Part shown: piece after piece, positions 7,826 through 57,952 of the stretch | Layout of the letters: every line of letters starts with the position of its first letter | How positions within the stretch are numbered: the stretch's first letter is position 1 | Assembly: GCF_008065135.1 (NCBI RefSeq) | Contig: NZ_CP042914.1 | Location: forward strand, 3,699,404 to 3,763,403 | DNA length: 64,000 nt | Direction: 5' to 3' | Origin: Roseimaritima ulvae | GTDB lineage: Bacteria; Planctomycetota; Planctomycetia; Pirellulales; Pirellulaceae | Notes under the pieces: generated by a model | Seen by the model: the letters and a program-made list of their open reading frames with translations, nothing else | What the model was told of the DNA's origin: nothing | The model's database searches: none | Position numbers and translations under genes: made by a program

Positions 7826-9922
7826 CTACGAATTAATCGTTTCGCTGACGTAGACCCGCATCGAGTGATAAGGCATCTCGACGATCCGGGTGCTGGGCGG
7901 CATGGGGCCGTCCAGATCTTCAAACAGATCGTCCGGCGCGTGGGCGGCGGTGTCGAGGAACAGGTTCCAATTCATGCCGCGACCGACGTCGGGCAGCTGG
8001 AACTCCCGCGGTTGCCCGGTGGAATTGAACAGCATCAGCACGTCGCGTCCGACACATTCCGGATCCGCCGCTTTGGACGGTGCCGCCAGGTAGGCCACCA
8101 TCGCCAAATCGTGTTGCCCCCAGTCCAATGGCGAACCGTCGGGCGAGTACCAAGAGACGTCGGGGATCAGGCGTCCGGGCGAAGGCTGTCCGGTCAAGAA
8201 CGTGCGGCGGCGAACAGTGGGCTGAGCCAGACGGAACTTGATCAGGCCTTGCGTAAACCGCAGCATCTCGGCGTTCTTTTCCACCAACCGCCAGTCGAAC
8301 CAACTGATGTCGTTGTCTTGGCAGTAGGCGTTGTTATTGCCTTTTTGCGTTCGCCGCACCTCGTCACCGCTGACCAGCATCGGCGTGCCCTGGCTGAGCA
8401 CCAGCGTGGCCATCATGTTTTTGACTTGGCGATTGCGAACTTCGCGGATGCCTTTGCGACGCGTGGGGCCTTCGACACCGTAGTTGTCGCTGCAGTTATT
8501 ATTGTCCCCGTCGCGGCCTTCTTCGCCGTTGGCTAGGTTGTGCTTTTCCTTGTACATCACCAAGTCGTTCAGCGTGAAACCGTCGTGGCTGGTGACGAAG
8601 TTGATGCTGCTGGCCGGAGCCCGACCGCTGTGTTCGTACAAGTCGCTGCTGCCGGCCAAGCGTGTGGCCAGCGCGCCGAGCGTGCCGGAATCGCCGCGCC
8701 AGAAACGACGCACGTCATCGCGGTACCGTCCGTTCCATTCCGCCCAGCGGCTACCAGAGCCGAACGAACCGACCTGGTAAGCACCGGCCGCGTCCCAAGC
8801 TTCGGCGATGATCTTGGTGTCGGCCAACATCGGATCTTCAGCGATCAGTTCCACCATCGGCGGGTTGGGGACCAAATTGCCCGATTGATCACGGCTGAGG
8901 ATACTGGCCAAGTCGAAGCGGAAGCCGTCGATGTGGTAGTTGTGCACCCAGTGCCGCAAACAGTGGAAGATCATCTCGCGGACGACCGGATGATTACCGT
9001 TGACCGTGTTGCCACAACCGCTGTAGTTGGCGTAATGCCGACCACCGTCTTCGAGGATGTAGTAGATACTGTTTTCCAGCCCCTTGAAGGACAGCGTGGG
9101 GCCGCGGTCGTTGCCTTCACAGGTGTGGTTAAAGACCACGTCCAGGATGACTTCGATCCCGGCGGCGTGCAGTGCCTTGACCATCTCTTTGAACTCGCGG
9201 ACCTGCGCCCCAGGCGTGCTGTCGTGAGCGAACCCGCGGTGCGGCGAGAAGAAGGCCATCGAGTCGTAGCCCCAATAATTCGGTCGCGCCGGCTTGTGGC
9301 CCAGCGTGTCCATGATCGGGAACTCGTGAATCGGCATCAGTTCGACGGCCGTAATCCCCAGCGACTGCAGGTAGGGAATTTTTTCAATCACACCCAGGTA
9401 GCTGCCGCCGGCGTCCACTTTGGCCGTGCGGCTCTTGGTGAATCCGCGGACGTGCATCTCGTAGATCACCGACTCGTCGAGCGGTCGCCGCAGGTGGCGG
9501 TCACCTTCCCAGTCGAATTGGTCATCGACTACCACACAGCGCGGCGGACGAACAACGTTGTCGCTGCTCTTTTGAAACGTACCGGCCAGGGCTTGGGCGT
9601 AGGGGTCGATCAGCCGCGCCGAGGAGTCGAAGCGATGACCGTGGTCGGGGTCCCAAGGACCGCTGGCTTGGAAATGATACAATTGGCCCGGTCCGATTCC
9701 AGGCACGTGCATGCTCCACACATCGCCCCAACGATCGGTATCGCGATCGAATTCGATCACTTCGGCAGGTTCACGGTCGGTGACACGATTATAGAGCAGC
9801 AGCCGCATGGCCGTGGCGGAACGACTGAAGACGGAAAACTGTACACCGTTTTCCTGTACCGAAGGCCCAAAAGGGGCTTGGTATGCAAATTGAAGCTCGG
9901 GATGCGGATGTCGCATTAGCAT
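7826..9922 (-). CDS. glgX: Glycogen debranching enzyme GlgX (isoamylase, GH13)
   Basis: It has an N-terminal CBM48-like region and the GH13 conserved region II motif GFRFDLAS. The length (698 aa) is typical. Confidence 0.85.
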   Translation of the reverse strand: MLMRHPHPELQFAYQAPFGPSVQENGVQFSVFSRSATAMRLLLYNRVTDREPAEVIEFDRDTDRWGDVWSMHVPGIGPGQLYHFQASGPWDPDHGHRFDSSARLIDPYAQALAGTFQKSSDNVVRPPRCVVVDDQFDWEGDRHLRRPLDESVIYEMHVRGFTKSRTAKVDAGGSYLGVIEKIPYLQSLGITAVELMPIHEFPIMDTLGHKPARPNYWGYDSMAFFSPHRGFAHDSTPGAQVREFKEMVKALHAAGIEVILDVVFNHTCEGNDRGPTLSFKGLENSIYYILEDGGRHYANYSGCGNTVNGNHPVVREMIFHCLRHWVHNYHIDGFRFDLASILSRDQSGNLVPNPPMVELIAEDPMLADTKIIAEAWDAAGAYQVGSFGSGSRWAEWNGRYRDDVRRFWRGDSGTLGALATRLAGSSDLYEHSGRAPASSINFVTSHDGFTLNDLVMYKEKHNLANGEEGRDGDNNNCSDNYGVEGPTRRKGIREVRNRQVKNMMATLVLSQGTPMLVSGDEVRRTQKGNNNAYCQDNDISWFDWRLVEKNAEMLRFTQGLIKFRLAQPTVRRRTFLTGQPSPGRLIPDVSWYSPDGSPLDWGQHDLAMVAYLAAPSKAADPECVGRDVLMLFNSTGQPREFQLPDVGRGMNWNLFLDTAAHAPDDLFEDLDGPMPPSTRIVEMPYHSMRVYVSETINS

Positions 9923-10429
9923 GTAGGAAGGTCCTTCTTTCGCTGTTCACGTGAGCGTGATCGGTTGGCAGATAGCAAAACCTACCCGCGCCCTAACAAC
10001 TGTCGGCTCGCAGCGGCGTTTTGCTGCAAGAAACGTGACAGCGCCGTACGAGCGGTACCGGCTGGCTCAAGTTGGCGAAACAAGTCCTCCTTTTCGGTGA
10101 CCGAATGTGTGCTGGTTGAGGCCCCTATAACGCCGGAACATCCGGTAAAGGCCTCAGCAAATTGTGTGAAAGTCTAACTCTTATTTCATGCCATCTGCCA
10201 TTAAAACCAGCAAAATTGGGGTTTCGTTACCGCAGCGGCAAACACAAGCCCGCTAGTGCCGCCTTAAGGGGGAACGGCAGCGGGCCGGCGAGGCTGCGGC
10301 TCGGCGTCGGCGAAATTTCGCCCGTGGATGTGTTTTTTCGCCCCACATGCAAGCAATCCAATCCGCTGGCATAATGTTCCCTTCCCGTTCCCCTGCTTCG
10401 CCTCATCAAACCCCCATTCGCAGATTCCC

Positions 10430-11491
10430 ATGCCAGTCACGTACAAAGATGCCGGTGTCGATTTGGATGTGTACGCCCAATCGATGGGGCGACTGCCGGC
10501 TCTGATGCATCGTACCTTCAGCCCACGCGTACTGCAAAGCGATGGGGGGTTCGCGGGGCTCTTTCGGCTCGATTTCGAGGGCAAGCTGTTCTCGCGGAAC
10601 TATCGCCAACCGATCCTGGTCAGCGGAACCGACGGGGTGGGCACGAAACTGAAAATTGCACAGGAAACCAGCCGCCACGACACGGTGGGCATCGATTTGG
10701 TCGCGATGTGCGTCAACGATCTGTTGTGTACCGGCGCCGAACCGCTGTTCTTCTTAGATTACGTGGCGATGGGGCGGGACGACCCGGATCGGCTGGAAAA
10801 AATCGTTCAGGGAATCAGCGACGGCTGCCTGCAAGCCGATAGCGCGTTGCTGGGCGGTGAGACGGCGATCATGCCCGACATGTACGGCAATGACGACTAC
10901 GATCTGGCCGGGTTTTCCGTCGGCGTGGTCGAACAAAGCCGCTTGATCGACGGCCGCCAAATCGCCGCCGGGGATACGGTCTTGGGCATCGCCAGCAGCG
11001 GCCTGCATTCCAACGGTTTCAGCCTGGTCCGCAAAATCATCAAAGACGCCGGTCTGACCTGGGACGACCAACCCGAAGCTCTCGGCGGCGAATCGATTGC
11101 TGACGCCACGCTGCGGCCAACCCGGATTTACGTCTCCGCCCTACGCGCCGTTCAGAGCCACTACCGCGTCAAACAAGTCCTGCACGGAATCGCTCACATC
11201 ACCGGCGGCGGATTGGCCGAAAATCTCGGACGCGTCATGCCGACCAACGTGGACGCGGTGATCGACCCAGGCAGCTGGAAGCCGGCGCCGGTGTTCAGCT
11301 GGTTGCAGGAACTGGGCGGCGTGGCGGCCGAGGAGATGGAACGCGTGTTCAATATGGGCATCGGAATGGTCTTGGTGGTCAGCAACTATTACGCCGCCAG
11401 TGTCGCCGAACGCGTCGCCGCGGCCGGATACGAGTGCACTCCGATCGGCACCATCGTCGAGGGCAGCGGCACCGTCCGCTACGAGGAATAA
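10430..11491 (+). CDS. purM: Phosphoribosylformylglycinamidine cyclo-ligase (AIR synthetase) PurM. The ORF track starts at 10328, but the [11 protein letters not shown] start at 10430 matches the canonical N-terminus.
   Basis: The sequence [13 protein letters not shown]... GGFAGLF ... [11 protein letters not shown] ... is diagnostic of PurM. Confidence 0.9.
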
Positions 11492-11507
11492 AAAGCCATC
11501 CTCCACC

Positions 11508-11573
11508 CGTAGCCGAACTCGCCAGAGTTTGGACGTTTCCCGGAGCCCCCAAAGCCTGGCGACTTCGGCTACC
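11508..11573. repeat. REP-B pair (one + copy, one - copy) downstream of purM
   Basis: The sequence is cgtagccgaactcgccagagtttggacg ... cctggcgacttcggctacc. Confidence 0.7.
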
Positions 11574-11607
11574 AGCGTGCCAGACGGGGAAAAAACAAAC
11601 GCGGCGG

Positions 11608-12612
11608 CTAACTTACTGCGTGCGGCAGCGGTCGTCCGTTCAGGCCGGCGATGATGTTGTTGGCGGCGATCATCGCCATCTGCTCGCGGCTATCCCGGCT
11701 GGCGCTGCCGATATGCGGCGCGATCACACATTGGGGCAGGCCGACCAAGGGGTGTTCGGGCGGCAGGGGCTCGGGCGTGGTCACATCCAATCCAGCGGCA
11801 AAGATCTTTTTCTCCGTCAGCGCCTTGAGTAGTGCCGGCTGGTCGATGACTTCGCCGCGAGCGGTATTCACCAGCACAACGTGGGAACGCATTTGAGCAA
11901 ACTGCGGTGCATCGAGCATGCCCCGCGTTTCGTCACTCAGCGGACAGTGCACGGAGATGAAATCGCTGTTTGCCAGCAGAGTATCCAAATCGACGTGCCG
12001 GCCCCCCACCTGCTGGTTCGCCTCGGGCTTGGGCGAACGGGCGGTGTACAGGACGTCCATCGACCAGCCGGCGTGCATGCGGCAGGCGACGGCCAGCCCG
12101 ATCCGGCCCATACCGATGATCCCCAGTGTTTTGCCCGTCAGATCGACACCGATCAGCCCCAACGGCTCCCAGGTTTTCCAGTCTCCGTGACGGACCTGAT
12201 CAATCGCCTCGGGCAACCGGCGGGCGGCGGCAAGCAGCAACGTCACAGCCAAATCCGCCGTGGCGTCGGTCAGCACATCGGGCGTATTGCCCACCGCCAC
12301 GCCCCGCTGCTGGGCGGCCGCGACGTCGATATTGTTAAAACCGACTGCATAATTGCAGACCACACGCAGCTGCGGGCCCACCTGGTCAAGCAGTTCGCCG
12401 TCGACGCGGTCGCTAAGCAGCGTCAGCAAACCCTGGCAACCTTCGGCGTGTCGTAGCAATTCGTCGCGGTTGGGAGGCATATCGCCAGGCCACACCTCCA
12501 CCTTGGCAACTTGACGCAGGCATTCCAAACCTTTTTCGGGGATCTGGCGGGTGACAAACACCCGCGGGCGCGATTGGGGACTCATAGTTCTGGATCTCTG
12601 AGCGGAAAACAA
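11608..12612 (-). CDS. D-isomer-specific 2-hydroxyacid dehydrogenase (glyoxylate/hydroxypyruvate reductase-like). The start is possibly Met-10 (MSPQSRPRVFV).
   Basis: It has a GIIGMGRIGLAVA NAD-binding motif and the catalytic R/E/H region (HIGSAS). Confidence 0.8.
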   Translation of the reverse strand: MFSAQRSRTMSPQSRPRVFVTRQIPEKGLECLRQVAKVEVWPGDMPPNRDELLRHAEGCQGLLTLLSDRVDGELLDQVGPQLRVVCNYAVGFNNIDVAAAQQRGVAVGNTPDVLTDATADLAVTLLLAAARRLPEAIDQVRHGDWKTWEPLGLIGVDLTGKTLGIIGMGRIGLAVACRMHAGWSMDVLYTARSPKPEANQQVGGRHVDLDTLLANSDFISVHCPLSDETRGMLDAPQFAQMRSHVVLVNTARGEVIDQPALLKALTEKKIFAAGLDVTTPEPLPPEHPLVGLPQCVIAPHIGSASRDSREQMAMIAANNIIAGLNGRPLPHAVS

Positions 12613-17269: not shown

Positions 17270-18430
17270 CTATTCGCTGGCGGGTTGGGCGGCGGGATAG
17301 GAGCCCAGGATATCCAATCGCATCGCCTGCTTCTTCAACGAGTCGATGGCGGCGGCGACCGGCGGATCGCTGCGGTGGCCTTCGCATTCGATAAAGAAGA
17401 AATACTCGGCGTTTTCGCCGACGATCGGAAACGATTCGATCCAGGTCAGGTTCAATCGGTTGTTTTTGAAAATCGCCATCGCGTCGGCCAGCGCTCCGGG
17501 TTTGTGTGCGACCTGAAGCAACATGGTCGTTTTGTCGCGCCCCGTGGCGTCTATGGTCTCGTTGCCGAGAACGGCAAACCGGGTCACGTTGTAGGGGCTG
17601 TCTTCGATGTTGGCATCGACCACGTCCAACCCGTATTGGCGACCGGCTTCGCGTCCGGCCACAGCGGCCACGCCCGGTTGCTCACTGGCAATGCGTGCCG
17701 CTTCGGTTGTACTGGCGACTTCCACAATTTGTGCCGTGGGTAGATGCCGCGCCAGCCAATGCCGACACTGCGAGAGGGCTTGCGGTTTGCTGCACACCTG
17801 CTTGATCGCTTCCCGCGGCGAACGCGACAAGAGGTTGTGATGAATCGGTAGAAACACTTCCCCGCAAATATGCACGCGATGTACGACAAACATCCCCAGC
17901 GTGTCCACGATGCGGCCATCGGTACTGTTCTCAATCGGCACGACTCCGCTGCGGCAGTCGCCGGCGACCACGCTTTCAAACACGGCTTCGATCGATTGCA
18001 CCGGGGCCAGCGCGGCGGCCGCGCCAAAGAAGCGGGTCGTAGCCATGTAGCTGTAGCTGTACTTGGGTCCCAAGAAGGCGACCCGTTGGTTCTCGCCGCC
18101 GCGAAGGCAAAAACTGGCTGCGTGCCGCAGCCAATCGCGGACCCCGGCTCGATCCAACGCGTCGGCATCGGCTGAGTCCGTAGCGGGAAGCATCTCCGCG
18201 AGCACTTGGTCGATGGCTTCGTTGGCACGGCTCATGCGGCCGATCAGCTCCGCCGGTGATTTCTGTAGGTCCGCCTGCACCACGGTCCGCCGCTGCCGCA
18301 GCAATTCAATTAATTGCCGGTCCAAACTGGCTAATTTGTCCGGTTTTGCGGACCGGTCCGGTGAGGCGGATGGATTCGGCGGCGGTGCATCGGTCACGGC
18401 GGTGGGTCCCTTCCCCTGGAGTGCTGTCAT
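17270..18430 (-). CDS. pheA: Bifunctional chorismate mutase / prephenate dehydratase PheA (CM + PDT + ACT domains)
   Basis: It has an N-terminal CM-like helix (LDRQLIELLRQRRTVVQAD), a PDT domain (RVAFLGPKYSYSYMA) and a C-terminal ACT-like region. Confidence 0.8.
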   Translation of the reverse strand: MTALQGKGPTAVTDAPPPNPSASPDRSAKPDKLASLDRQLIELLRQRRTVVQADLQKSPAELIGRMSRANEAIDQVLAEMLPATDSADADALDRAGVRDWLRHAASFCLRGGENQRVAFLGPKYSYSYMATTRFFGAAAALAPVQSIEAVFESVVAGDCRSGVVPIENSTDGRIVDTLGMFVVHRVHICGEVFLPIHHNLLSRSPREAIKQVCSKPQALSQCRHWLARHLPTAQIVEVASTTEAARIASEQPGVAAVAGREAGRQYGLDVVDANIEDSPYNVTRFAVLGNETIDATGRDKTTMLLQVAHKPGALADAMAIFKNNRLNLTWIESFPIVGENAEYFFFIECEGHRSDPPVAAAIDSLKKQAMRLDILGSYPAAQPASE

Positions 18431-18591
18431 TATGGCAAGTCGCCTGAAAACCCGGCTCGGGTGGAAATCCCATTCTGGCAGACAATGCCCGCTAGATTCT
18501 TGCCGAAGTCATTATTTGCAGTTTTGGAATATGCACAAGCCCTTAATGCAAAACGACTTATGTAAAACGGCAGTGCCGCCGGCAGCTTAAA

Positions 18592-18606
18592 TGGCACAGT
18601 TGTTGC
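18592..18606 (+). promoter_or_regulatory. Candidate sigma-54 (-24/-12) promoter TGGCAC-N5-TTGC, 76 nt upstream of the dnaK ATG
   Basis: The sequence is aaaTGGCACagttgTTGCCata. GG and GC are spaced exactly 12 nt apart, as in the RpoN consensus. Confidence 0.5.
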
Positions 18607-18681
18607 CATAGAGTGACTTTCGAAGAAACCGTTACACCTAACCGTTGGGGGACCGCCCCACATTACGCAGGAGAATGGACC

Positions 18682-20631
18682 ATGGCACAAGGTGAAAAAA
18701 TCATCGGGATCGACTTGGGCACGACCAACAGCGTTGTCGCTGTGATGGAAGGCAGTGAGCCCAAGGTGATTCCGAACCCGGAAGGCAATCGGCTGACCCC
18801 TAGTGTGGTCGCCTTTACCGACAACGCCGACACGATTGTGGGCGAGCCGGCACGGCGTCAGGCCGTGACCAACCCCACACGTACCGTCTACAGCGTGAAA
18901 CGCTTCATCGGTCGTCGACATAACGAAGTCGAAGGCGAAGAGAAGATGGTGCCCTATGGCGTCACCGGTGCGGCCGGCGAATACGTCAAAATTAAAGTGG
19001 GTGACAAAGAACACACGCCGCAAGAAATCTCGGCCAAAGTGCTCCGAAAACTCAAGGAGTCCGCTGAGTCGTACTTGGGGCACAAAGTCAACAAAGCCGT
19101 GATCACCGTTCCGGCTTATTTTAACGACAGCCAGCGACAAGCCACCAAAGATGCCGGGCAGATCGCCGGATTGGAAGTCGCGCGAATCATCAACGAACCG
19201 ACCGCCGCCGCCTTGGCGTACGGTTTGGACAAGAAGAAAGACGAAAAGATTGTCGTCTTCGACCTCGGGGGCGGTACCTTCGACGTCTCGGTGCTGGAAG
19301 TTGCCGATAGCGGTGATGACGATTCCAGCAGCCGTGTGTTCCAGGTGGTCAGCACCTCGGGCGATACGCACCTCGGTGGTGACGACTTCGACGAAGCGTT
19401 GATTCACCATGTGGCCGACAAATTCAAAGCCGAAAGCGGCGTCGATTTGCGTAGCGACCCGATGGCTCTGCAGCGTTTGCAGGAAGCCTGCGAGAAAGCC
19501 AAGAAAGAACTCAGCACGCTGCCGCAAACCGACATCAACCTGCCCTTCATCACGATGGACTCGGCCGGTCAGCCTAAGCACCTGACGATGTCGATCTCCC
19601 GCTCGACCTTTGAAGAGCTGATCGATGATCTGGTGCAACGCTGCAAGAAGCCGCTGATGCAGGCCCTGCAGGACGCCGGCATGCAACCTTCCGACATCGA
19701 TGAAATCGTGTTGGTCGGTGGTAGCACGCGAGTTCCCAAGGTGCGCGCCGTGGTTAAAGAAGTCTTTGGCAAGGAACCGCACCAGGGCGTCAACCCAGAC
19801 GAAGTGGTGGCCGTGGGCGCCGCGATCCAAGGGGCCGTGTTGGCCGGCGATCGTACCGACGTGCTGCTGCTGGACGTGACGCCGTTGACCCTGGGTATCG
19901 AAACCGAAGGCGGCGTGCTGACGCCCCTGGTCGAACGCAACACCACGGTCCCGGTCGAGAAGAAGAACGTGTTTAGTACGGCGGCCGACGGACAATCCGC
20001 GGTTACCGTGCGCGTCTTCCAGGGCGAGCGGAAAATGGCCAACGCCAACCGCCTGCTGGGTGAATTTAACCTCGAAGGCATTCCGCCGGCACCGCGTGGA
20101 ACCCCGCAGATCGAAGTCAAATTCGACATCGACCAAAACGGCATCCTGAGCGTTTCCGCGAAGGAACTCGGTACCGGTAAAGAAGCCTCGGTGACGATCA
20201 ACGAAGCCGCCGGGTTGGACGAATCGGAAATCGAGCAGATGCGCAAAGACGCGGAAGCCAACGCCGATGAAGACCGCCGTCAGTTCGAGTTGGCCGAAGC
20301 TCGCAACAAGGCCAACAACATGACCTATCAGTTGGAAAAACTGATGAAGGACAATGACGAGAAGTTGACCGATGACGACAAGGCACCGCTGGAACAGGCG
20401 ATCGAAAAGGTGAAGAAAGCCGCTGAAGGCGACGACACCGCTGCGATCAAGCAAGCGACCGACGAACTCGAAGCCGCTTCGCAAGCCTTCACCAAGGTGC
20501 TGTACGAAAAAGGCGGCAGCGAAACCGCTGGTGCCGAGGGCGGAGCGGCCGCAGCCGGAAGTGCCGCGGCAGCCGACGCCGATGGCGCCGACGACGACGC
20601 CATCGACGCCGAGTTCGAAGTCAAAGACTAA
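18682..20631 (+). CDS. dnaK: Chaperone DnaK (Hsp70)
   Basis: It has [18 protein letters not shown] and the Hsp70 signature. An AGGAGAA Shine-Dalgarno sequence lies 8 nt upstream of the ATG. Confidence 0.95.
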
Positions 20632-20659
20632 TCGTCCGACCTCGAATGGATTCAGCCAA

Positions 20660-20693
20660 CGCAGCCGCTCGGATGAGCGGCTGCGTTTTTTTG
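20660..20693 (+). terminator. Rho-independent terminator of dnaK
   Basis: The sequence is cgcagccgctc-ggat-gagcggctgcg followed by TTTTTTT. Confidence 0.8.
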
Positions 20694-20823
20694 TTGGTTG
20701 TTGGTTGTTGGTTGGGAGTTCTCGTTTAACCCGTAGCCGCAGGCGCCGGCGCATACGTCAACGGCCGCCGCGGGCCGCTCTCCGAACCGTGGCATCGAAC
20801 GCGGCGGGAAAATCTGAAATCTG

Positions 20824-20864
20824 CTGACTCTACCGGACGCGTACAAAGATTCCGGTAGAGTCAG
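20824..20864. other. 14-bp perfect inverted repeat (ctgactctaccgga ... tccggtagagtcag) immediately upstream of the microsatellite
   Basis: Read directly from the sequence. No T-run follows, so it is not a classic terminator. Confidence 0.6.
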
Positions 20865-20865
20865 G

Positions 20866-21054
20866 AAATCTCAAATCTCAAATCTCAAATCTCAAATCTC
20901 AAATCTCAGATCTGAGATCTCAGATCTGAGATCTCAGATCTCAGATCTCAGATCTCAGATCTCAGATCTCAGATCTCAGATCTCAGATCTCAGATCTCAA
21001 ATCCCAAATCCCAAATCCCAAATCTCAAATCCCAAATCCCAAATCCCAAATCCC
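20866..21054. repeat. Heptanucleotide microsatellite, about 27 units: (AAATCTC)5, (AGATCTG/AGATCTC)~14, (AAATCCC/AAATCTC)~8
   Basis: It is a perfect 7-bp periodicity over 189 bp. The central block is a run of overlapping BglII-type palindromes (agatct). Confidence 0.9.
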
Positions 21055-21062
21055 TCCAACAA

Positions 21063-21107
21063 CCAAACTCTGGCGAGTTCGGCTACGCCTTACCATTCGG
21101 CTACGCC
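21063..21107. repeat. REP-B copy plus a partial copy (- orientation)
   Basis: The sequence is ccaaactctggcgagttcggctacg ... ccattcggctacgcc. Confidence 0.65.
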
Positions 21108-21122
21108 TTACCAACCACCAAC

Positions 21123-21138
21123 TGGCACGCCACTTGCA
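21123..21138 (+). promoter_or_regulatory. Candidate sigma-54 (-24/-12) promoter TGGCAC-N5-TTGCA, 67 nt upstream of the clpB ATG
   Basis: The sequence is cTGGCACgccacTTGCAt, a perfect match to the core RpoN consensus. Confidence 0.5.
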
Positions 21139-21204
21139 TCTTCTTCTGTTCGCTTCCAGCCCTGCCAATTTCGGTAACGGCTCCCTACGATGAGGAACGA
21201 CTCC

Positions 21205-23886
21205 ATGGCTTTTCAATTCGATAAATTGACCGTCAAAGCTCAGGAAGCTGTGGCGGCCGCCCAGTCCAAATCCAGCTCCGCCGGCAACCCGGAAATGGAC
21301 CCTTTGCACTTGCTGCTGGCGCTGTTGGAACAGAACGATGGGATTGCCGGACCGCTGCTCAGTCGCACCGGAGCCGACGTTGCTCAACTGACCAGTTTGG
21401 CAACCGCTGAAATCGACAAGCTGCCCAAGGTGACCGGAGGTCGGCAGCCGCAGGTCGGCCCGGCGCTGCACCGGGTGCTTGAAGCGGCCGCCGAAAAATC
21501 CAAACAGATGAAGGACGAATTTGTCAGTAGCGAACATCTGTTGCTGGCGATGGCGGAAACCGACAACAAAGCCAAGAACTTGCTGCAACTGGTCGGCGTC
21601 GACGGTAACGATCTGTTGACCGCATTGGCACAGGTTCGCGGTTCAGCGCGCGTTACGGATCAGAACGCCGAAGACACCTATCAAGCTTTGCAGAAATACG
21701 GCATCGATCTGGTCGACCTGGCTCAGCAGGGCAAGCTGGATCCGGTGATCGGCCGTGACGATGAAATCCGCCGCGTGATCCAAGTCCTCTCGCGACGCAC
21801 CAAAAACAATCCGGTCCTGATCGGCCAACCCGGCGTCGGTAAGACGGCCATCGCCGAAGGTCTGGCGTTGCGAATCGTTGAAGGCGATGTGCCCAACAGC
21901 TTGAAGAACAAAAAGGTCGTGGCCCTGGATATGGGGGCCTTGGTTGCCGGTGCTAAATTCCGCGGCGACTTTGAAGAACGACTGAAATCCGTGCTGCGGG
22001 AAGTCAAAGACGCCGACGGCCAGGTGATCCTGTTTATCGACGAATTGCATCTGGTCGTGGGTGCGGGCAAAGCCGAAGGATCCGCGGATGCAGCTAACCT
22101 GCTGAAACCCGAGCTGGCTCGCGGCGTGCTTCGCTGCATCGGTGCCACCACGATGGACGAATACCGTCAGCACATCGAGAAAGATGCCGCGCTGGCTCGC
22201 CGCTTTCAACCGGTATATGTCGGCGAACCCAACGTTGAGGACACCATCGCCATCCTTCGCGGACTCAAACCCCGCTACGAAGCTCACCACGGCGTCCGCA
22301 TCACCGACAGCGCCATCGTAGCGGCGGCCGGTTTGTCGAATCGTTACATCACTGATCGCTTCCTGCCGGACAAAGCCATCGATTTGGTCGACGAAGCGGC
22401 CAGCCGGTTGGCGATGGAAAAAGAGAGCGTTCCCGAACCCATCGATCAGGTGCAACGCCGGATCCAACAACTGGAACTGGCCGATCGCCAATTAGCCGAC
22501 GAAGCCGACGCTTCGGCCGTGGCTCGACGCGATGCGATCCGCGAAGAAATGGAGACGCTGCGATCCGAATTGGCCAGCTTGCGCGAACAGTGGGAAGCCG
22601 AAAAGATGGGCTTGGACGACGTCCAGTCGCTGCGCAAAGAGTTGGAGCAGTTGGATCATCAGTTCCGCACGGAAGAATCCGAGTTGAGAAACCGTCAAGC
22701 CAGCGGCCAACCGGTTGCGGAAACCGAATACCAACGCTTGTTCGAACTGGACCAACAGCGACGCCAGCTAAACGCTCGGCTGGAAACGCTGGAAGATCAG
22801 GTTAAAGAACAGGACGACGATGGCGGGGAAGATGAAACCTCGGCCACGCGGCGACTGCTTCGCAAAGAGGTTACCGACGAGGAAATTGCCGAAGTCGTCA
22901 GCGCATGGACCGGCGTTCCGGTGCACCGCATGATGGAAGCCGAACGGGCCAAATTGCTGGTCATGGAAGAACGCTTGCATCAACGCGTGGTCGGCCAAGA
23001 CGAAGCGGTCACGGCGATCTCCGATGCCGTGCGTCGCAGCCGCAGTGGACTGCAAGACCCCAATCGACCCATCGGCTCGTTCCTGTTCCTGGGCCCCACC
23101 GGCGTCGGCAAAACCGAAGTCTGCAAAGCCCTGGCGCAGATCATGTTCGACGACGAATCCGCCATGGTGCGGATCGACATGAGCGAATTCATGGAACGTC
23201 ACAGCGTGGCCCGACTGATCGGTGCCCCTCCCGGATACGTTGGGTACGAAGAGGGCGGCAAGCTGACCGAAACGGTCCGGCGACGCCCCTACTGCGTTAT
23301 CCTGCTGGACGAAATGGAAAAGGCGCACCCCGACGTGTTCAACGTCTTGTTGCAGGTCCTGGACGATGGTCGCCTGACCGATGGACAGGGCCGCACCGTC
23401 GATTTCACCAACACCGTGATCGTGATGACCAGCAACGTCGGCAGTCAGGTGATCCAAAAGATCGCCTCCGAAGGCGGTACGCAAGACGAACTGCGGGAAG
23501 CCATCGAGGAACCATTGCGTTCGCGTTTCCTACCGGAGTTCCTCAACCGGATCGACGAAACCGTGGTCTTCCAACCTTTGCATCGGGACCAGATCCGCGA
23601 CATCGTGCGAATCCAACTGCGGCACTTGACCGAACGTTTGGAAGAGGCCGGGTTGAAGCTGGAAGTCACCGAAGCGGCGGTCCAACAGATCGCCAACGAG
23701 GGCTACGAACCGGCTTATGGAGCGAGACCGTTGAAACGGGTGATCCAACGCGAAGTCCAAAACCCCTTGGCTACCGCGCTGCTGCGTGAGTCGTACAAGG
23801 AAGGCACCACGATCGTGGTCGACTACGCCGACGACGCCTTCACGTTCACGGCGCAAGAAGCCCCGGTCGAAGCGACGGCAAGCTAA
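21205..23886 (+). CDS. clpB: Chaperone ClpB (AAA+ disaggregase, two NBDs with coiled-coil middle domain). The start at MAFQFDKLT (21205) is preferred over the ORF-track 21190.
   Basis: It has both Walker A motifs ([16 protein letters not shown]), sensor and arginine-finger motifs, and an M-domain coiled coil. Confidence 0.95.
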
Positions 23887-23906: not shown

Positions 23907-25437
23907 CTGCTGATTACCCAATTTTTAGTGAACGGATGATTTTGGAGGCCCGAAGGCTTGCCAGGCTAAGGCGAAGTCCATCATTCGGCGAGTTCCACGC
24001 CAGATCGTTTCCATTCCTGGTGGGCCGTCGTGTTTGCGTCCATTGTAGCCACCTAGCTGAGCAAGCACGGGGATGAATTGCGAGAGTTCGGGAGCTGATT
24101 TCGGCGGCTCCGATTCCTTAGCGACTTTCCAAACCGACTTCCATTCAGCGTCGCTGAATACAACATCGCATGGCAACTCAGGACACTCGCGTCCGAGGAA
24201 TGTGATAAACATGATCCGCCATGCAACAACTTTGTAAAACATCAACGCGCGAATCAGCCTGGCTTTGGTTTTCAGCTGGATGTCCTCAACGCGGCATCCC
24301 GATTTGAGTACTCGGAAGAACATTTCGACAGGCCACCGTGCGACGTAGTAGTCAACAATCCGCAATACATCTCGGTAATCGTCAATCGGAAGGGAGCTCA
24401 ATAGCAGCCAGTTCAGGTCGGTTCCATCCTGCGGCCCGTCGACCTCTTGAACGAGCACTACGCTGAGCGTCACTTCCGGAATAGCCGAGCGTCGTGCATG
24501 GGGCGGTTTTATCTTTGTGCGAATGGCACGGATTTCTAGAGTGGCCATTCGGGCGGCACGTTGGGCAGTGGCTGGCAACTCGACTTGCCGCGTTGTAACG
24601 AGATCTGTTTTTGCAACTTCGGATCGGATCTTCTTGTAGCTGTCGCCACCGGCTTCGTCGTCTTTTTCAGGCAAACACCGGACTTGCTTGCTGCGAATCA
24701 CGAAGTCGGCCGGATTATCGTGCTGTTCAGCTTCAACAAAGATGTCGTAGATGTCACCTTCGCGATCCGCTAAAGAAACAACTTGAGTCTCCGGGCACTG
24801 TGAGGCCAATTCACAGCATCGGCGATAGCCTTGAAGCCATCGAAAACTTTCCTTCTCTTCGATCGGATCACTCTTCCGTTGACTGCCCTTTCCTAGGCTG
24901 TCTTCACTACGATCAAAGAACTCCACATCCAGCACGCCCAGACAAAGCTTCTCGGGCGTAAAGGCTACAGAGCTATGGTCATACAATCCCCGTCGGTCTG
25001 CCATGTTTAGGCACTTCACATCGTCGGGGGCGTGACCGTTGAAGTCTAACTCCGTCGTGTCTTGGGCCACGCAAACCACCTTCTGGGACTTGATCCGCTT
25101 GATCGTCGCCCGACGGTGCGCAGCAAGAATTTCCTGGCTATCGGCCTTGGGGTTATCCAAGAACCGGTAAGCCCCTTTCGCAGCACACCATTTATCGCAA
25201 GCCGCATTAATGCTCGCTTGAGGATTGGCGAAGAGGGCCTGGAGAAGTTCTTTCGATCGATCGTTACGGCTTTTATGGCCGAAGTCGATGGTGTCAAATT
25301 CGTGCTCAATCGTGGCTGGTTCAATGGTCATCAATCGCGCTCCTATCGTGTAAAAATAGGTAACACGAGGCGCAAAAAGCGTGCCGAAATCGCGGTGTTT
25401 TTTTGCGATTTCAAAAAAAGAATTGGGTAATCAGCAG
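23907..25437 (-). mobile_element. Intact IS4-family insertion sequence (~1531 bp). It has 16-bp perfect terminal inverted repeats CTGCTGATTACCCAAT and is inserted into a REP-A copy with a ~10-bp target duplication (GCCCCTGGCC).
   Basis: IRL sits at 23907-23922 and IRR (reverse complement) at 25422-25437. The left flank is gtagcatgggcccctggcc and the right flank gcccctggcccgtgt, which together reconstruct one REP-A unit plus a duplicated segment. Confidence 0.8.
23925..25334 (-). CDS. IS4-family DDE transposase (469 aa, apparently intact)
   Basis: The C-terminal YYVARWPVEMFFRVLK gives the IS4-family Y-(2)-R-(3)-E-(6)-K signature. A DDE-type acidic residue context lies upstream. Confidence 0.8.
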   Translation of the reverse strand: MMTIEPATIEHEFDTIDFGHKSRNDRSKELLQALFANPQASINAACDKWCAAKGAYRFLDNPKADSQEILAAHRRATIKRIKSQKVVCVAQDTTELDFNGHAPDDVKCLNMADRRGLYDHSSVAFTPEKLCLGVLDVEFFDRSEDSLGKGSQRKSDPIEEKESFRWLQGYRRCCELASQCPETQVVSLADREGDIYDIFVEAEQHDNPADFVIRSKQVRCLPEKDDEAGGDSYKKIRSEVAKTDLVTTRQVELPATAQRAARMATLEIRAIRTKIKPPHARRSAIPEVTLSVVLVQEVDGPQDGTDLNWLLLSSLPIDDYRDVLRIVDYYVARWPVEMFFRVLKSGCRVEDIQLKTKARLIRALMFYKVVAWRIMFITFLGRECPELPCDVVFSDAEWKSVWKVAKESEPPKSAPELSQFIPVLAQLGGYNGRKHDGPPGMETIWRGTRRMMDFALAWQAFGPPKSSVH

Positions 25438-25575
25438 GCCCCTGGCCCGTGTAAAAAAGACGTCTCTCCTTCTCCAGAACACGGGCCGGGGACCCATGCT
25501 ACGGTTTCCAGAACACGGGCCGGGGACCCATGCTACGGCTTCCAGAACACGGGCCGGGGACCCATGCTACGGGGA
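25438..25575. repeat. REP-A remnant at the IS junction plus three tandem REP-A copies (ccagaacacgggccggggacccatgctacgg x3). The last GTAG supplies the TAG stop of the giant ATPase gene.
   Basis: Read directly. The spacers between copies (ttccagaa) are identical, so this is not a CRISPR array. Confidence 0.75.
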
Positions 25576-35135: not shown

Positions 35136-36587
35136 TTGGTCTCGCCCGAGATCGAATCAGAATTTCAACTTAGCCGTCCAGCGACTTCGGCTATGGCTGT
35201 ACTGGGAATAGAATCCATGCGTGCGTGTGTAAGTCTGGTGATCGTCGTTTGCTCCGCTGTAACAGCCTGTGCTCAGCAACCCGCGGCGGATTCCGCTGCG
35301 CGGATTGGTACCGGTGACGGCGTCGCCGACGATACGGCGGCCATCCAGGCGGCCGTCGATCGCTCTACCGGTAACATTCAACTAGGCAAAGGGACCTACC
35401 GAATCACCAAGCCGATTGTGATCGACCTGGACAAAGTCACTACGACGGCGATCCATGGCAACGGCGTGGCAAGGATCGTGATGGAAGGCGCCGGGCCCGC
35501 GTTTCGGTTCAAAGGAACGCATCAAGGAACCGCCGCGCCGCGGACCTTCAAGGTTCGTACCTGGGACCGGGAAAGTTCACCAATGGTCGACGGCCTGGAG
35601 ATCGTCGGCAAGCACGCCGAGGCTTGCGGCATCGAAGCCGATGGCACGATGCAATTGACGGTCACACGGGTTGTCGTTCGCGAAGCCTTGCACGGGATCC
35701 ACCTGATCGGCCGTAACCGCAATGTCACGCTGTCCGAATGCCACGTCTTTAATGGAACCGGCGTGGGAGTGTTTTTGGATCATTTGAACCTGCACCAGAT
35801 CAATATCGTGGGTTGTCATATCAGTTACAACGATCGCGGTGGGATCGTGCTGAAAGACAGCGAGGTCCGCAATCTACAGATCGGCAGCTGTGACATCGAA
35901 GGCAACATGGGCGGCGCAGACAGCGAACCGGCGGCCAACATCTTACTCGATGCCAGCGGCACCTCGATCGGCGAAGTCGCCATCACCGGCTGCACCATTC
36001 AACATTCCCACGACGCTCCCAAATCCGCCAATATCCGCATCCTGGGGCGTTCCAAAGCGGTGCCGTTTACTAGCGAACAGCGGCATGGCAACTTTACCAT
36101 CGCCAACAACATCCTCTCCGACGTCCAGGTCAACATCGACATCAAAGACGCTCGCGGCGTGGCCATCACCGGCAACACGATCTGGAAAGGTTTTAGCAGC
36201 AACCTGGTTGTGGAAAACTGCCAAAGCGTGGTGATGAGCGGCAATGTATTCGATCGCAATCCACGTTACGGCTATGGCGACGGTAAAGACGCCAAAGGCG
36301 GGGCCAAGTTCACCGGCTGCAGCGACTGCACGATCAGCGGCAACCACTTTTACGGCAAAGTCGCCGCTGAGGCCGCTTTGGTGCTGCGTCGCTGTCAACG
36401 ACTTAACGTCACCGGCTGTTCCATCTTAGACTATGGCAACTGCGGCCTGCTGCTCGATCAGGTAACCCGCAGCCGAGTGTCGGACTGTCTGATCCGCGAC
36501 GACCGGCCGCAAGCCGAAGGCGTTTCGATCGCGCAATCAGGCGACAACCAAGTTCAGATCAGCGATTGTCAGCTGAGTCACCCGTAG
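35136..36587 (+). CDS. Secreted right-handed parallel beta-helix (pectate-lyase superfamily) protein. The start is probably MAVLGIESM at ~35196, with a signal peptide.
   Basis: It has repeated beta-helix rung motifs (NxxIxxN / GxxxxGC, ITGCTI, ITGNTI, ISGNHF, VTGCSI). Its TAG stop is supplied by the following REP. Confidence 0.65.
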   Translation: MVSPEIESEFQLSRPATSAMAVLGIESMRACVSLVIVVCSAVTACAQQPAADSAARIGTGDGVADDTAAIQAAVDRSTGNIQLGKGTYRITKPIVIDLDKVTTTAIHGNGVARIVMEGAGPAFRFKGTHQGTAAPRTFKVRTWDRESSPMVDGLEIVGKHAEACGIEADGTMQLTVTRVVVREALHGIHLIGRNRNVTLSECHVFNGTGVGVFLDHLNLHQINIVGCHISYNDRGGIVLKDSEVRNLQIGSCDIEGNMGGADSEPAANILLDASGTSIGEVAITGCTIQHSHDAPKSANIRILGRSKAVPFTSEQRHGNFTIANNILSDVQVNIDIKDARGVAITGNTIWKGFSSNLVVENCQSVVMSGNVFDRNPRYGYGDGKDAKGGAKFTGCSDCTISGNHFYGKVAAEAALVLRRCQRLNVTGCSILDYGNCGLLLDQVTRSRVSDCLIRDDRPQAEGVSIAQSGDNQVQISDCQLSHP

Positions 36588-36738
36588 CCGAAGTCGTTCG
36601 ACGGTGGAGGCAGGCCGTTCCCGTCCAATCTCTGGCGCGATCGGCTACGGTGCGCTGCGACCACGCTCTGGTGAGCGTAGCTACGGGGACGCGGTAGTTA
36701 GGATGCGCGGTCCCACGCTCTGGCGAGCGTAGCTACGG
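36584..36738. repeat. REP-B cluster of 4 copies (one degenerate + copy and three - copies)
   Basis: The sequence is gtagccgaagtcgttcgacggtgg ... ctctggcgcgatcggctacgg ... cacgctctggtgagcgtagctacgg ... cacgctctggcgagcgtagctacgg. Confidence 0.7.
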
Positions 36739-40301: not shown

Positions 40302-40416
40302 CATCGTAGCTACGCTCGCCAGAGCGTGGGACCACGCGCCGTCCCCCACCGTCTGGCGACGGTAGCTACGACCCACCGTCTGGCGACGGTAGCTACGAGA
40401 GGGTGGTCGCTACGGC
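40302..40416. repeat. REP-B cluster (one + copy, two - copies and a partial copy). The partial copy supplies the stop codon of the downstream convergent gene.
   Basis: The sequence is gtagctacgctcgccagagcgtggga ... cgtctggcgacggtagctacga (x2) ... cgctacgg. Confidence 0.7.
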
Positions 40417-54627: not shown

Positions 54628-54724
54628 CGTAGCTACCGTCGCCAGACGGTGGTTTCGCTGTAGCTACCGTCGCCAGACGGTGGTTCCGCTGTAGTCCCCC
54701 CACGCTCTGGCGAGCGTAGCTACG
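54628..54724. repeat. REP-B cluster (two + copies, one - copy)
   Basis: The sequence is cgtagctaccgtcgccagacggtgg x2 ... ccacgctctggcgagcgtagctacg. Confidence 0.7.
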
Positions 54725-56174: not shown

Positions 56175-56241
56175 CCGTAGCCGAACTCGCCAGAGTTTGG
56201 ACGTTGGGTTGACCGTCCAAACTCTGGCGAGTTCGGCTACG
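56175..56241. repeat. REP-B inverted pair forming a perfect 28-bp-armed palindrome (REPIN-like doublet)
   Basis: The sequence is ccgtagccgaactcgccagagtttggacg-ttgggttgac-cgtccaaactctggcgagttcggctacg. Confidence 0.8.
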
Positions 56242-57896: not shown

Positions 57897-57952
57897 AAAC
57901 GGGAATCCAAACTCTGGCGAGTTCGGCTACGGGGGCGAGTTCGGCTACGGGG
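57897..57952. repeat. REP-B copy plus a partial copy (- orientation)
   Basis: The sequence is ccaaactctggcgagttcggctacgggggcgagttcggctacgggg. Confidence 0.65.

Follow-up and report, generated by a model that had tools for sequence, protein, structure and literature searches.

The dnaK-clpB locus of Roseimaritima ulvae raises the question of how clpB, which follows dnaK on the same strand, is transcribed and which sigma factor directs its expression. Our analysis covers a 64,000-nt stretch of this genome (contig NZ_CP042914.1, positions 3,699,404 to 3,763,403 of the forward strand), called the window here and numbered from its first letter. Upstream of clpB, at 21123-21138 (+), the window contains TGGCACgccacTTGCA, an element of the -24/-12 type associated with the alternative sigma factor sigma-54 (RpoN). 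Judging from its sequence, its position and its fate in related genomes, we consider it likely that this element is a functional sigma-54-dependent promoter of clpB.

Direct reading of positions 21122-21139 gives cTGGCACgccacTTGCAt, which places the GG of the element at 21124-21125 and its GC at 21136-21137, in the GG-N10-GC spacing that is canonical for sigma-54. The element is intergenic, lies 3' of the dnaK terminator described below and ends 67 nt before the clpB start codon (ATG, 21205) on the same strand. A first-pass annotation of the window had placed it at exactly this position and had described a second perfect match ahead of dnaK, in the same orientation and at a similar distance. 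Position, orientation and distance are all confirmed by our reading, the two sites lying on one strand and 67 nt (clpB) and 75 nt (dnaK) from their start codons, and the word "perfect" holds at both sites for the GG/GC cores and for TGGCAC and TTGC but not for the base that follows, since the dnaK site ends in TTGCC and not in TTGCW. Accordingly, the exact pattern TGGCAC-N5-TTGCW has a single match on both strands of the window, the clpB element, where 0.05 are expected, and when the W is dropped, leaving the ten positions of TGGCAC-N5-TTGC, there are two full matches, one before clpB and one before dnaK; sites with at most one mismatch are expected about four times per window. Putting the C of the -12 GC (21137) at -12, as in standard sigma-54 geometry, predicts a transcription start at 21149 (+) and a 5' untranslated region of about 56 nt. 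A Shine-Dalgarno sequence, gaggaa, can be read at 21192-21197 (+) and is kept in the closest relative that we compared (L081; comparison loci carry L numbers). The gene itself (21205-23886, +) encodes 893 amino acids with the Pfam domains Clp_N, AAA, AAA_lid_9, AAA_2 and ClpB_D2-small, 100% identical to Roseimaritima ulvae ClpB; ATG 21205 is the clpB start in the relatives too, and an in-frame ATG at 21190 is missing from R. sediminicola (L082).

The gene in front, dnaK (18682-20631, +; Pfam HSP70, E = 5e-248), is preceded by the sister element TGGCACagttgTTGCC (18592-18607, +), which lies 75 nt before the ATG at 18682, matches all ten TGGCAC/TTGC positions and has C as its final base. Behind dnaK stands an intrinsic terminator (20658-20694, +) composed of a hairpin at 20658-20687, with a 13-bp stem that includes nine G-C pairs, and a following TTTTTTT; hairpin and T-run are also found after dnaK in three relatives (L081, L082 and L083). 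Because dnaK ends in so strong a terminator, clpB needs a promoter of its own, and the element at 21123-21138 is the last of the features that make up the 573-nt dnaK-clpB spacer, which are, in order, the terminator, a 41-nt inverted repeat, a 7-bp array, a copy of a repetitive extragenic palindrome (REP)-like element and the sigma-54-type element.

The phylogenetic footprint of the locus points in the same direction. We compared it in L081 (ClpB 95% identical), L082 (R. sediminicola, 89%) and L083 (87%), all of which keep pheA diverging from dnaK and clpB following dnaK. Each has a site before clpB, TGGCACGGCACTTGCA in L081 (67 nt to the ATG), CGGCACAACAGTTGCG in L082 (68 nt) and TGGCACGCCGCTTGCT in L083 (96 nt). 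In the alignment of the four Roseimaritima-clade relatives (alignment A2), GGCAC..C..TTGC is invariant and the DNA upstream of the site is unalignable, with no conserved block upstream of -24. Two more distant loci, L088 and L090 (ClpB 80-81%), are particularly informative: their clpB has been relocated behind rplM-rpsI, away from dnaK, and has retained a perfect sigma-54-type element, TGGCACGCGGCTTGCT, about 100 nt from the actual start. The element thus travels with clpB, which is the behaviour expected of a promoter. Across all five diverged clpB upstream regions, the L088 group included, GGCAC..TTGC is invariant and constitutes the main invariant block upstream. The site before dnaK, for its part, is kept in L081-L083, L085-L087, L089 and L091.

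A broader scan for ClpB in genomes returned 80 loci, of which 30 from Planctomycetota and 49 from other phyla were scored for a site with GG and GC intact and at most one mismatch to TGGCAC-N5-TTGC, lying in the 300 nt ahead of clpB or, where dnaK adjoins it upstream, ahead of dnaK. Such sites occur at 22 of the 30 planctomycete loci and at none of the 49 others, over a background of 0.038 sites per kb per strand, and at another six planctomycete loci a site with two mismatches stands where one would be expected, behind the palindrome described below, bringing the count to 28 of 30. The base after TGGCAC, which was not part of the search pattern, is mostly G or A and matches the general sigma-54 consensus. 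Which gene carries the site depends on the arrangement. Where dnaK adjoins clpB, a site precedes dnaK in 10 of 11 genome loci (none was found before dnaK of L016), and in other Pirellulaceae with this arrangement it is the only one (L004-L011, Rhodopirellula sp. JC740, Rosistilla, Crateriforma, Laterigemmans and L089); where clpB is solitary, as in Phycisphaerae and several Planctomycetales, the site lies before clpB. Since other Pirellulaceae have the dnaK site only, the second, clpB-proximal site is a trait of the Roseimaritima/L088 lineage. Two extra sigma-54-like sites in relatives, at L006:12537 and L029:1467, are not before chaperone genes. These comparative data bear out the earlier opinion that two such sites ahead of adjacent heat-shock genes are unlikely to be a coincidence, and the sigma-54 promoter that the first-pass annotation proposed is supported by the geometry of the element, the dnaK terminator, conservation, the phylum-wide pattern and the rpoN gene that the literature lists for this species.

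Most planctomycete sigma-54 sites of this kind have a companion. Counting k-mers and inverted repeats in 34 upstream regions singled out a 13-bp palindrome, TGYCA-N3-TGRCA. If one mismatch is allowed, 27 of the 34 sigma-54 sites have a copy 73-226 nt upstream. Before dnaK, clpB, groEL, hsp20 and lon across the phylum, the palindrome typically sits 73-167 nt ahead of the site. Exact copies number 33 in 486 kb of planctomycete loci versus 2 in 565 kb from other phyla; in 22 of the 33 cases a sigma-54 site follows at 50-260 nt, and another 7 copies precede a clpB or dnaK whose site is weaker. In Phycisphaerae, the distance from palindrome to site, start to start, is nearly constant at 73-80 nt, and in one Phycisphaerae metagenome-assembled genome (MAG; L027, 1-2600) groEL and clpB are divergent, each with its own sigma-54-type site, and share a 900-nt spacer with four palindromes in total, three of them for groEL. 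The only exact copy in the window, TGTCATTATGGCA (18425-18437, +), is a candidate enhancer, or upstream activating sequence (UAS), of dnaK: it precedes the dnaK sigma-54 site by 167 nt, shares bases with the start codon of pheA, the divergent gene, and occupies the same position in L081-L083. A second copy with one mismatch, TCCCATTCTGGCA (18468-18480, +), stands 43 nt closer to dnaK, at 124 nt from the sigma-54 site, and is also present in L081. The dnaK promoter of R. ulvae therefore has the architecture of the palindrome-plus-sigma-54 chaperone module, in which the palindrome stands 70-170 nt upstream. A metagenome scan for TGCCA-N3-TGRCA followed after 58-88 nt by TGGCAC-N5-TTGC listed 80 loci, for 70 of which the downstream open reading frame (ORF) was extracted; among the matches listed, these encode Hsp20 (19), Cpn60 (GroEL; 9), Hsp70 (DnaK; 7, one of them Phycisphaerae-type), and extracytoplasmic function (ECF) sigma factors (5), with Lon, ClpB, ClpP and an M48 peptidase represented once each, and some of the remaining matches may be chance by our own, uncomputed estimate. 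A 5-N3-5 palindrome is the typical architecture of sites for NtrC/LuxO-type activators, which bind through a Fis-type helix-turn-helix. In the annotation of uncultured Planctomycetota, palindrome and promoter together can readily mark the heat-shock regulon.

The clpB promoter lacks this companion, and several observations weigh against its assignment as the promoter of clpB. Apart from the dnaK copies, 2.7 kb upstream, no palindrome with at most one mismatch lies within 2 kb of the clpB site. The same is true of its lineage: beyond the copies of dnaK, none of the five clpB-proximal promoters of the Roseimaritima/L088 group has a palindrome within 2-3 kb, and the stretch examined in L088/L090 has none at all. 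A UAS usually lies 70-200 nt upstream, and at clpB the 250 nt upstream are made up of a dispersed REP-like repeat and a microsatellite with 7-bp units, neither of which is conserved, not even in L081 with its ClpB identity of 95%. With no palindrome and with unconserved repeat DNA upstream, a canonical clpB enhancer is missing. Furthermore, no recognisable sigma-54 site precedes clpB in L004-L011, L085-L087, L089 and L091, despite a terminator-like hairpin after dnaK, so that a separate sigma-54 promoter for clpB is not universal in Pirellulaceae. A second promoter may also be present in the 573-nt spacer, given that the planctomycete consensus for sigma-70 and ECF sigma factors is poorly known, and tblastn with the AAA+ domain of PspF revealed no activator gene consistently linked to the module. 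As to the enhancer, a UAS is usual but not obligatory at sigma-54 promoters.

What the clpB promoter has in place of an upstream palindrome is a conserved hexamer downstream. CTGCCA (21162-21167, +) starts 25 nt beyond the C in the -12 GC, at about +14 to +19, and is invariant in the five clpB-proximal promoters (alignment A3), occupying the same position, +39 to +42 from the sigma-54 site, in L081-L083, L088 and L090. Its sequence is that of the left half-site, down to the flanking C that is common where the palindrome is complete, and the right half is weakly similar. CTGYCA also occurs at +39 to +42 from the site start in five independent promoters, L014, L028, L128, L139 and L160, all of which have an upstream palindrome. 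By a rough estimate, about 0.2 such occurrences would be expected by chance in roughly 120 promoters, which suggests that the hexamer is a recurrent auxiliary feature.

Three other explanations of the clpB element deserve consideration. The one that survives best, which we nevertheless regard as improbable, holds that sigma-54 holoenzyme binds the site but that this is not the main promoter of clpB, being instead poised, vestigial or a roadblock, and that clpB is transcribed by read-through from dnaK or from an unrecognised sigma-70 or ECF promoter in the spacer. The missing enhancer palindrome within 2 kb and the many Pirellulaceae that do without a clpB-proximal site are in its favour; so are the clpB gene of Leptospira, which is driven by ECF sigma factors (PMC12655853), and the tandem sigma-66/sigma-54 arrangement of the Chlamydia hrcA-grpE-dnaK operon, which has been discussed as partly repressive (PMC8762339). 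Read-through, however, would have to pass the 13-bp-stem terminator with its seven-T tail, and a search for a sigma-70-like hexamer pair found none in 18300-21300, a weak negative given how poorly the planctomycete consensus is known. ClpB has diverged by roughly 20% and the flanks of the element have been scrambled, yet its core has not changed, and a clpB that has left dnaK (L088/L090) has kept the element at the same distance, which would be difficult to account for if the site had no function.

A second explanation, which we rate as very unlikely, takes the conserved block for the operator of another DNA-binding protein, for example a heat-shock repressor, that happens to resemble the sigma-54 consensus. 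Heat-shock genes are in many bacteria under repressors such as HrcA, acting at CIRCE, or HspR, acting at HAIR, and the downstream CTGCCA could belong to such an operator. Against this, the block has no palindromic symmetry, conservation falls exactly on GG-N10-GC and TGGCAC/TTGC, and the same consensus recurs in roughly 60 independent promoters. Elsewhere the motif is accompanied by a separate palindrome at typical enhancer spacing. Control by HrcA and CIRCE was rejected, as no TTAGCACTC-N9-GAGTGCTAA with up to three mismatches is found anywhere in the window. Finally, short motifs do arise by chance, and about four sites with up to one mismatch are expected per window, but a chance match without function is an extremely remote prospect, effectively refuted by the comparative data, since the match is exact where 0.05 are expected, is right in position and orientation, is conserved in five diverged relatives and follows a contrast between phyla of 22/30 to 0/49.

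We therefore return to the element as a sigma-54-dependent promoter of clpB, for which we infer, in addition to sigma-54 dependence, a start site, heat induction and the identity and docking mode of an activator. In the mechanism we propose, dnaK, having its own sigma-54 promoter and a strong terminator, and clpB would be transcribed separately. Sigma-54 holoenzyme would bind the -24 GG and the -12 GC of the clpB promoter as a closed complex, and transcription would start near 21149 only when this complex is remodelled by an ATP-hydrolysing enhancer-binding protein. clpB would thus sit in a heat-shock regulon controlled by sigma-54 and its activator, which in Planctomycetota would also comprise dnaK, groEL, hsp20 and lon. 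At most members of this regulon, the activator probably docks on TGYCA-N3-TGRCA, 70-170 nt upstream; since the sister promoters carry the palindrome, the activator probably does bind DNA elsewhere. At clpB, the same activator would act from solution on the stable closed complex of a perfect-consensus core. It could be helped by looping from the dnaK enhancer 2.7 kb upstream, a route that is unavailable in L088/L090, or by the conserved CTGCCA half-site at +14 to +19. Probably, the clpB-proximal promoter lineage is the only one that lost, or never had, the palindrome site.

Regarding the sigma factor itself, neither a Pfam scan nor tblastn found rpoN within the window. R. ulvae UC8 has an rpoN gene, UC8_31680, with the full AID-CBD-DBD architecture according to the supplement of a 2025 PLoS One survey (PMC12316311), which also gives, in what appears to be a count of enhancer-binding proteins, the uncertain figure of 19 for this strain. 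In Rhodopirellula baltica, where rpoN is RB6491, heat induces clpB and dnaK and leaves rpoN mRNA unchanged (PMC2754498), a response consistent with control by an activator and not by the level of the sigma factor. Among planctomycete loci, an NtrC-type gene stands next to clpB in one (L004); a few metagenome contigs also carry one (L092, L144, L148 and L170). In L004, a Pirellulaceae MAG, positions 8677-11944 directly downstream of clpB encode an NtrC-type response regulator (REC-AAA+ with GSFTGA-HTH) and a PAS histidine kinase, and in L092, L148 and L170 similar regulators directly precede the palindrome-plus-promoter module; these genes are possible leads to the activator.

More broadly, the core heat-shock genes of Planctomycetota (dnaK, clpB, groEL, hsp20 and lon) could be controlled by one sigma-54 activator acting on TGYCA-N3-TGRCA, in place of a system of the sigma-32 or HrcA type, with R. 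ulvae clpB as a derived, enhancer-less member that has a perfect core and a CTGCCA half-site. For this wider proposal, belief and doubt are evenly balanced in our assessment. The combination of a perfect core with a downstream half-site is, to our knowledge, undescribed for sigma-54 promoters. In the textbook cases, heat-shock control works by sigma-32 switching (Proteobacteria) or by repressor release (HrcA, HspR). If the proposal is true, the phylum would sense protein damage through an ATPase activator, a regulatory logic unlike sigma switching or repressor release. The locus is also well suited to a test on a small scale, as sigma-54 promoters stand close together at two classic heat-shock genes, one with a candidate enhancer and one without; comparing the dnaK and clpB promoters could show whether the palindrome is the enhancer, which enhancer-binding protein of the strain senses heat and whether in this group a sigma-54 promoter can fire when no site is nearby.

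Several further features of the locus were recorded. The spacer inverted repeat (20826-20866) has perfect 14-bp arms, CTGACTCTACCGGA and TCCGGTAGAGTCAG, around a 13-nt loop and is absent from the relatives. The 7-bp tandem array (20866-21052) comprises 26.7 copies of the units AAATCTC, AGATCTC, AGATCTG and AAATCCC and ends 70 nt upstream of the clpB promoter; its location is hypervariable, being occupied by 9-mers together with AAATCTG/AAATCTC in L081 and by a 34-mer array in L082, and having no repeats in L083. The REP-like element, GGCGAGTTCGGCTACG, has 15 matches in the window where one is expected, often as inverted or tandem pairs in intergenic DNA (5-51, 11508-11573, 14453, 16379, 20732, 21072-21113, 35180, 36583-36649, 56176-56241 and 57916-57949), and one copy lies 36 nt upstream of the -24 element of clpB. 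An RNA thermometer or other leader structure was considered and rejected, as the clpB and dnaK leaders of the window and of three relatives fold no more stably than shuffled sequences (z from 0.0 to +1.6). Rfam gave no family over threshold in 18300-21300, and the sub-threshold matches to microRNA models there are an artefact of the self-complementary AGATCT repeats. A 774-amino-acid ORF antisense to dnaK (18430-20754, -), which matches Pfam NAD-GH with E = 7e-152, is likewise not a gene but an HSP70-antisense artefact; we take this match to be the familiar spurious family that arises when HSP70 genes are read backwards.

Downstream of clpB, a Tn5-family transposase gene (23925-25334, -) is inserted before a 1757-amino-acid AAA/DUF3686 gene; L081 lacks it at this position. 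The TTG start of the transposase is preceded at 37 nt by a sigma-54-like site with one mismatch, CGGCACGCTTTTTGCG (25371-25386, -), which may be chance, about four such sites being expected per window; it adjoins a 34-bp tandem repeat of 2.9 copies (25473-25572). This repeat is one of several intergenic tandem repeats with units of 27-36 bp (1899-1981, 25473-25572, 40345-40398 and 54629-54694), some of which share the core GGGCC..GGGGCCCATGCTACGG, and minisatellites between genes seem to be frequent in this genome.

The proposed clpB promoter can be set against several known systems. In Escherichia coli, as proposed here, dnaK and clpB are under one alternative sigma factor as a heat-shock regulon, but sigma-32 (RpoH) is controlled by its abundance and by chaperone titration, needs no activator and recognizes an unrelated promoter sequence, whereas sigma-54 stays bound constitutively and depends on an ATPase activator. 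Sigma-54 with an enhancer-binding protein is known to drive genes of protein quality control or envelope stress in response to heat or a related stress, as at E. coli pspA (through PspF) and ibpB and at Myxococcus lonD (through HsfA/HsfB), and these are single operons beside a main system of the sigma-32 or HrcA type. In Planctomycetota, by contrast, it is the core chaperone set (dnaK, clpB, groEL, hsp20 and lon) that carries the motif. Sigma-54 activation without an upstream site has precedents in Helicobacter FlgR and Chlamydia CtcC, activators that lack a DNA-binding domain. The likeness to clpB is that they work without an upstream activator site; the difference is that the sister promoters of clpB carry a palindrome.

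Chlamydia, like Planctomycetota a member of the Planctomycetes-Verrucomicrobia-Chlamydiae (PVC) superphylum, has a sigma-54 promoter before its Hsp70-system operon and an NtrC-type activator, AtoC/CtcC (a 2020 study cited in PMC8762339). There, a sigma-66 promoter and the HrcA/CIRCE repressor act alongside the sigma-54 promoter, whereas neither a sigma-70-like site nor CIRCE was seen at our locus, and clpB is not among the sigma-54 targets named in the passages of PMC8762339 considered here. The nearest counterpart is the 2025 survey, based on position-specific scoring matrices and including R. ulvae UC8, which reports predicted sigma-54 promoters significantly enriched before the genes for DnaK, DnaJ, GrpE, GroEL, GroES and IbpA in Planctomycetota and Bacteroidota and before Clp ATPases of COG0542 in Planctomycetia (PMC12316311). 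Element, phylum and gene classes (DnaK, COG0443; COG0542, which includes ClpB) are the same as ours; the survey gives enrichment at the level of COGs only and is purely in silico for Planctomycetes, and in the text and supplements considered here neither the individual clpB site nor the dnaK terminator, the upstream palindrome or a clpB promoter without an enhancer is listed. No paper showing a sigma-54-dependent clpB experimentally was found in the literature searched. Given the link between sigma-54 and chaperone genes drawn by the survey, the clpB site is an individually documented example of a kind already predicted; what is new, relative to the literature searched, where none of these was found, is the palindrome, its spacing, the set of heat-shock genes that it marks and the enhancer-less clpB variant with its half-site at +14.

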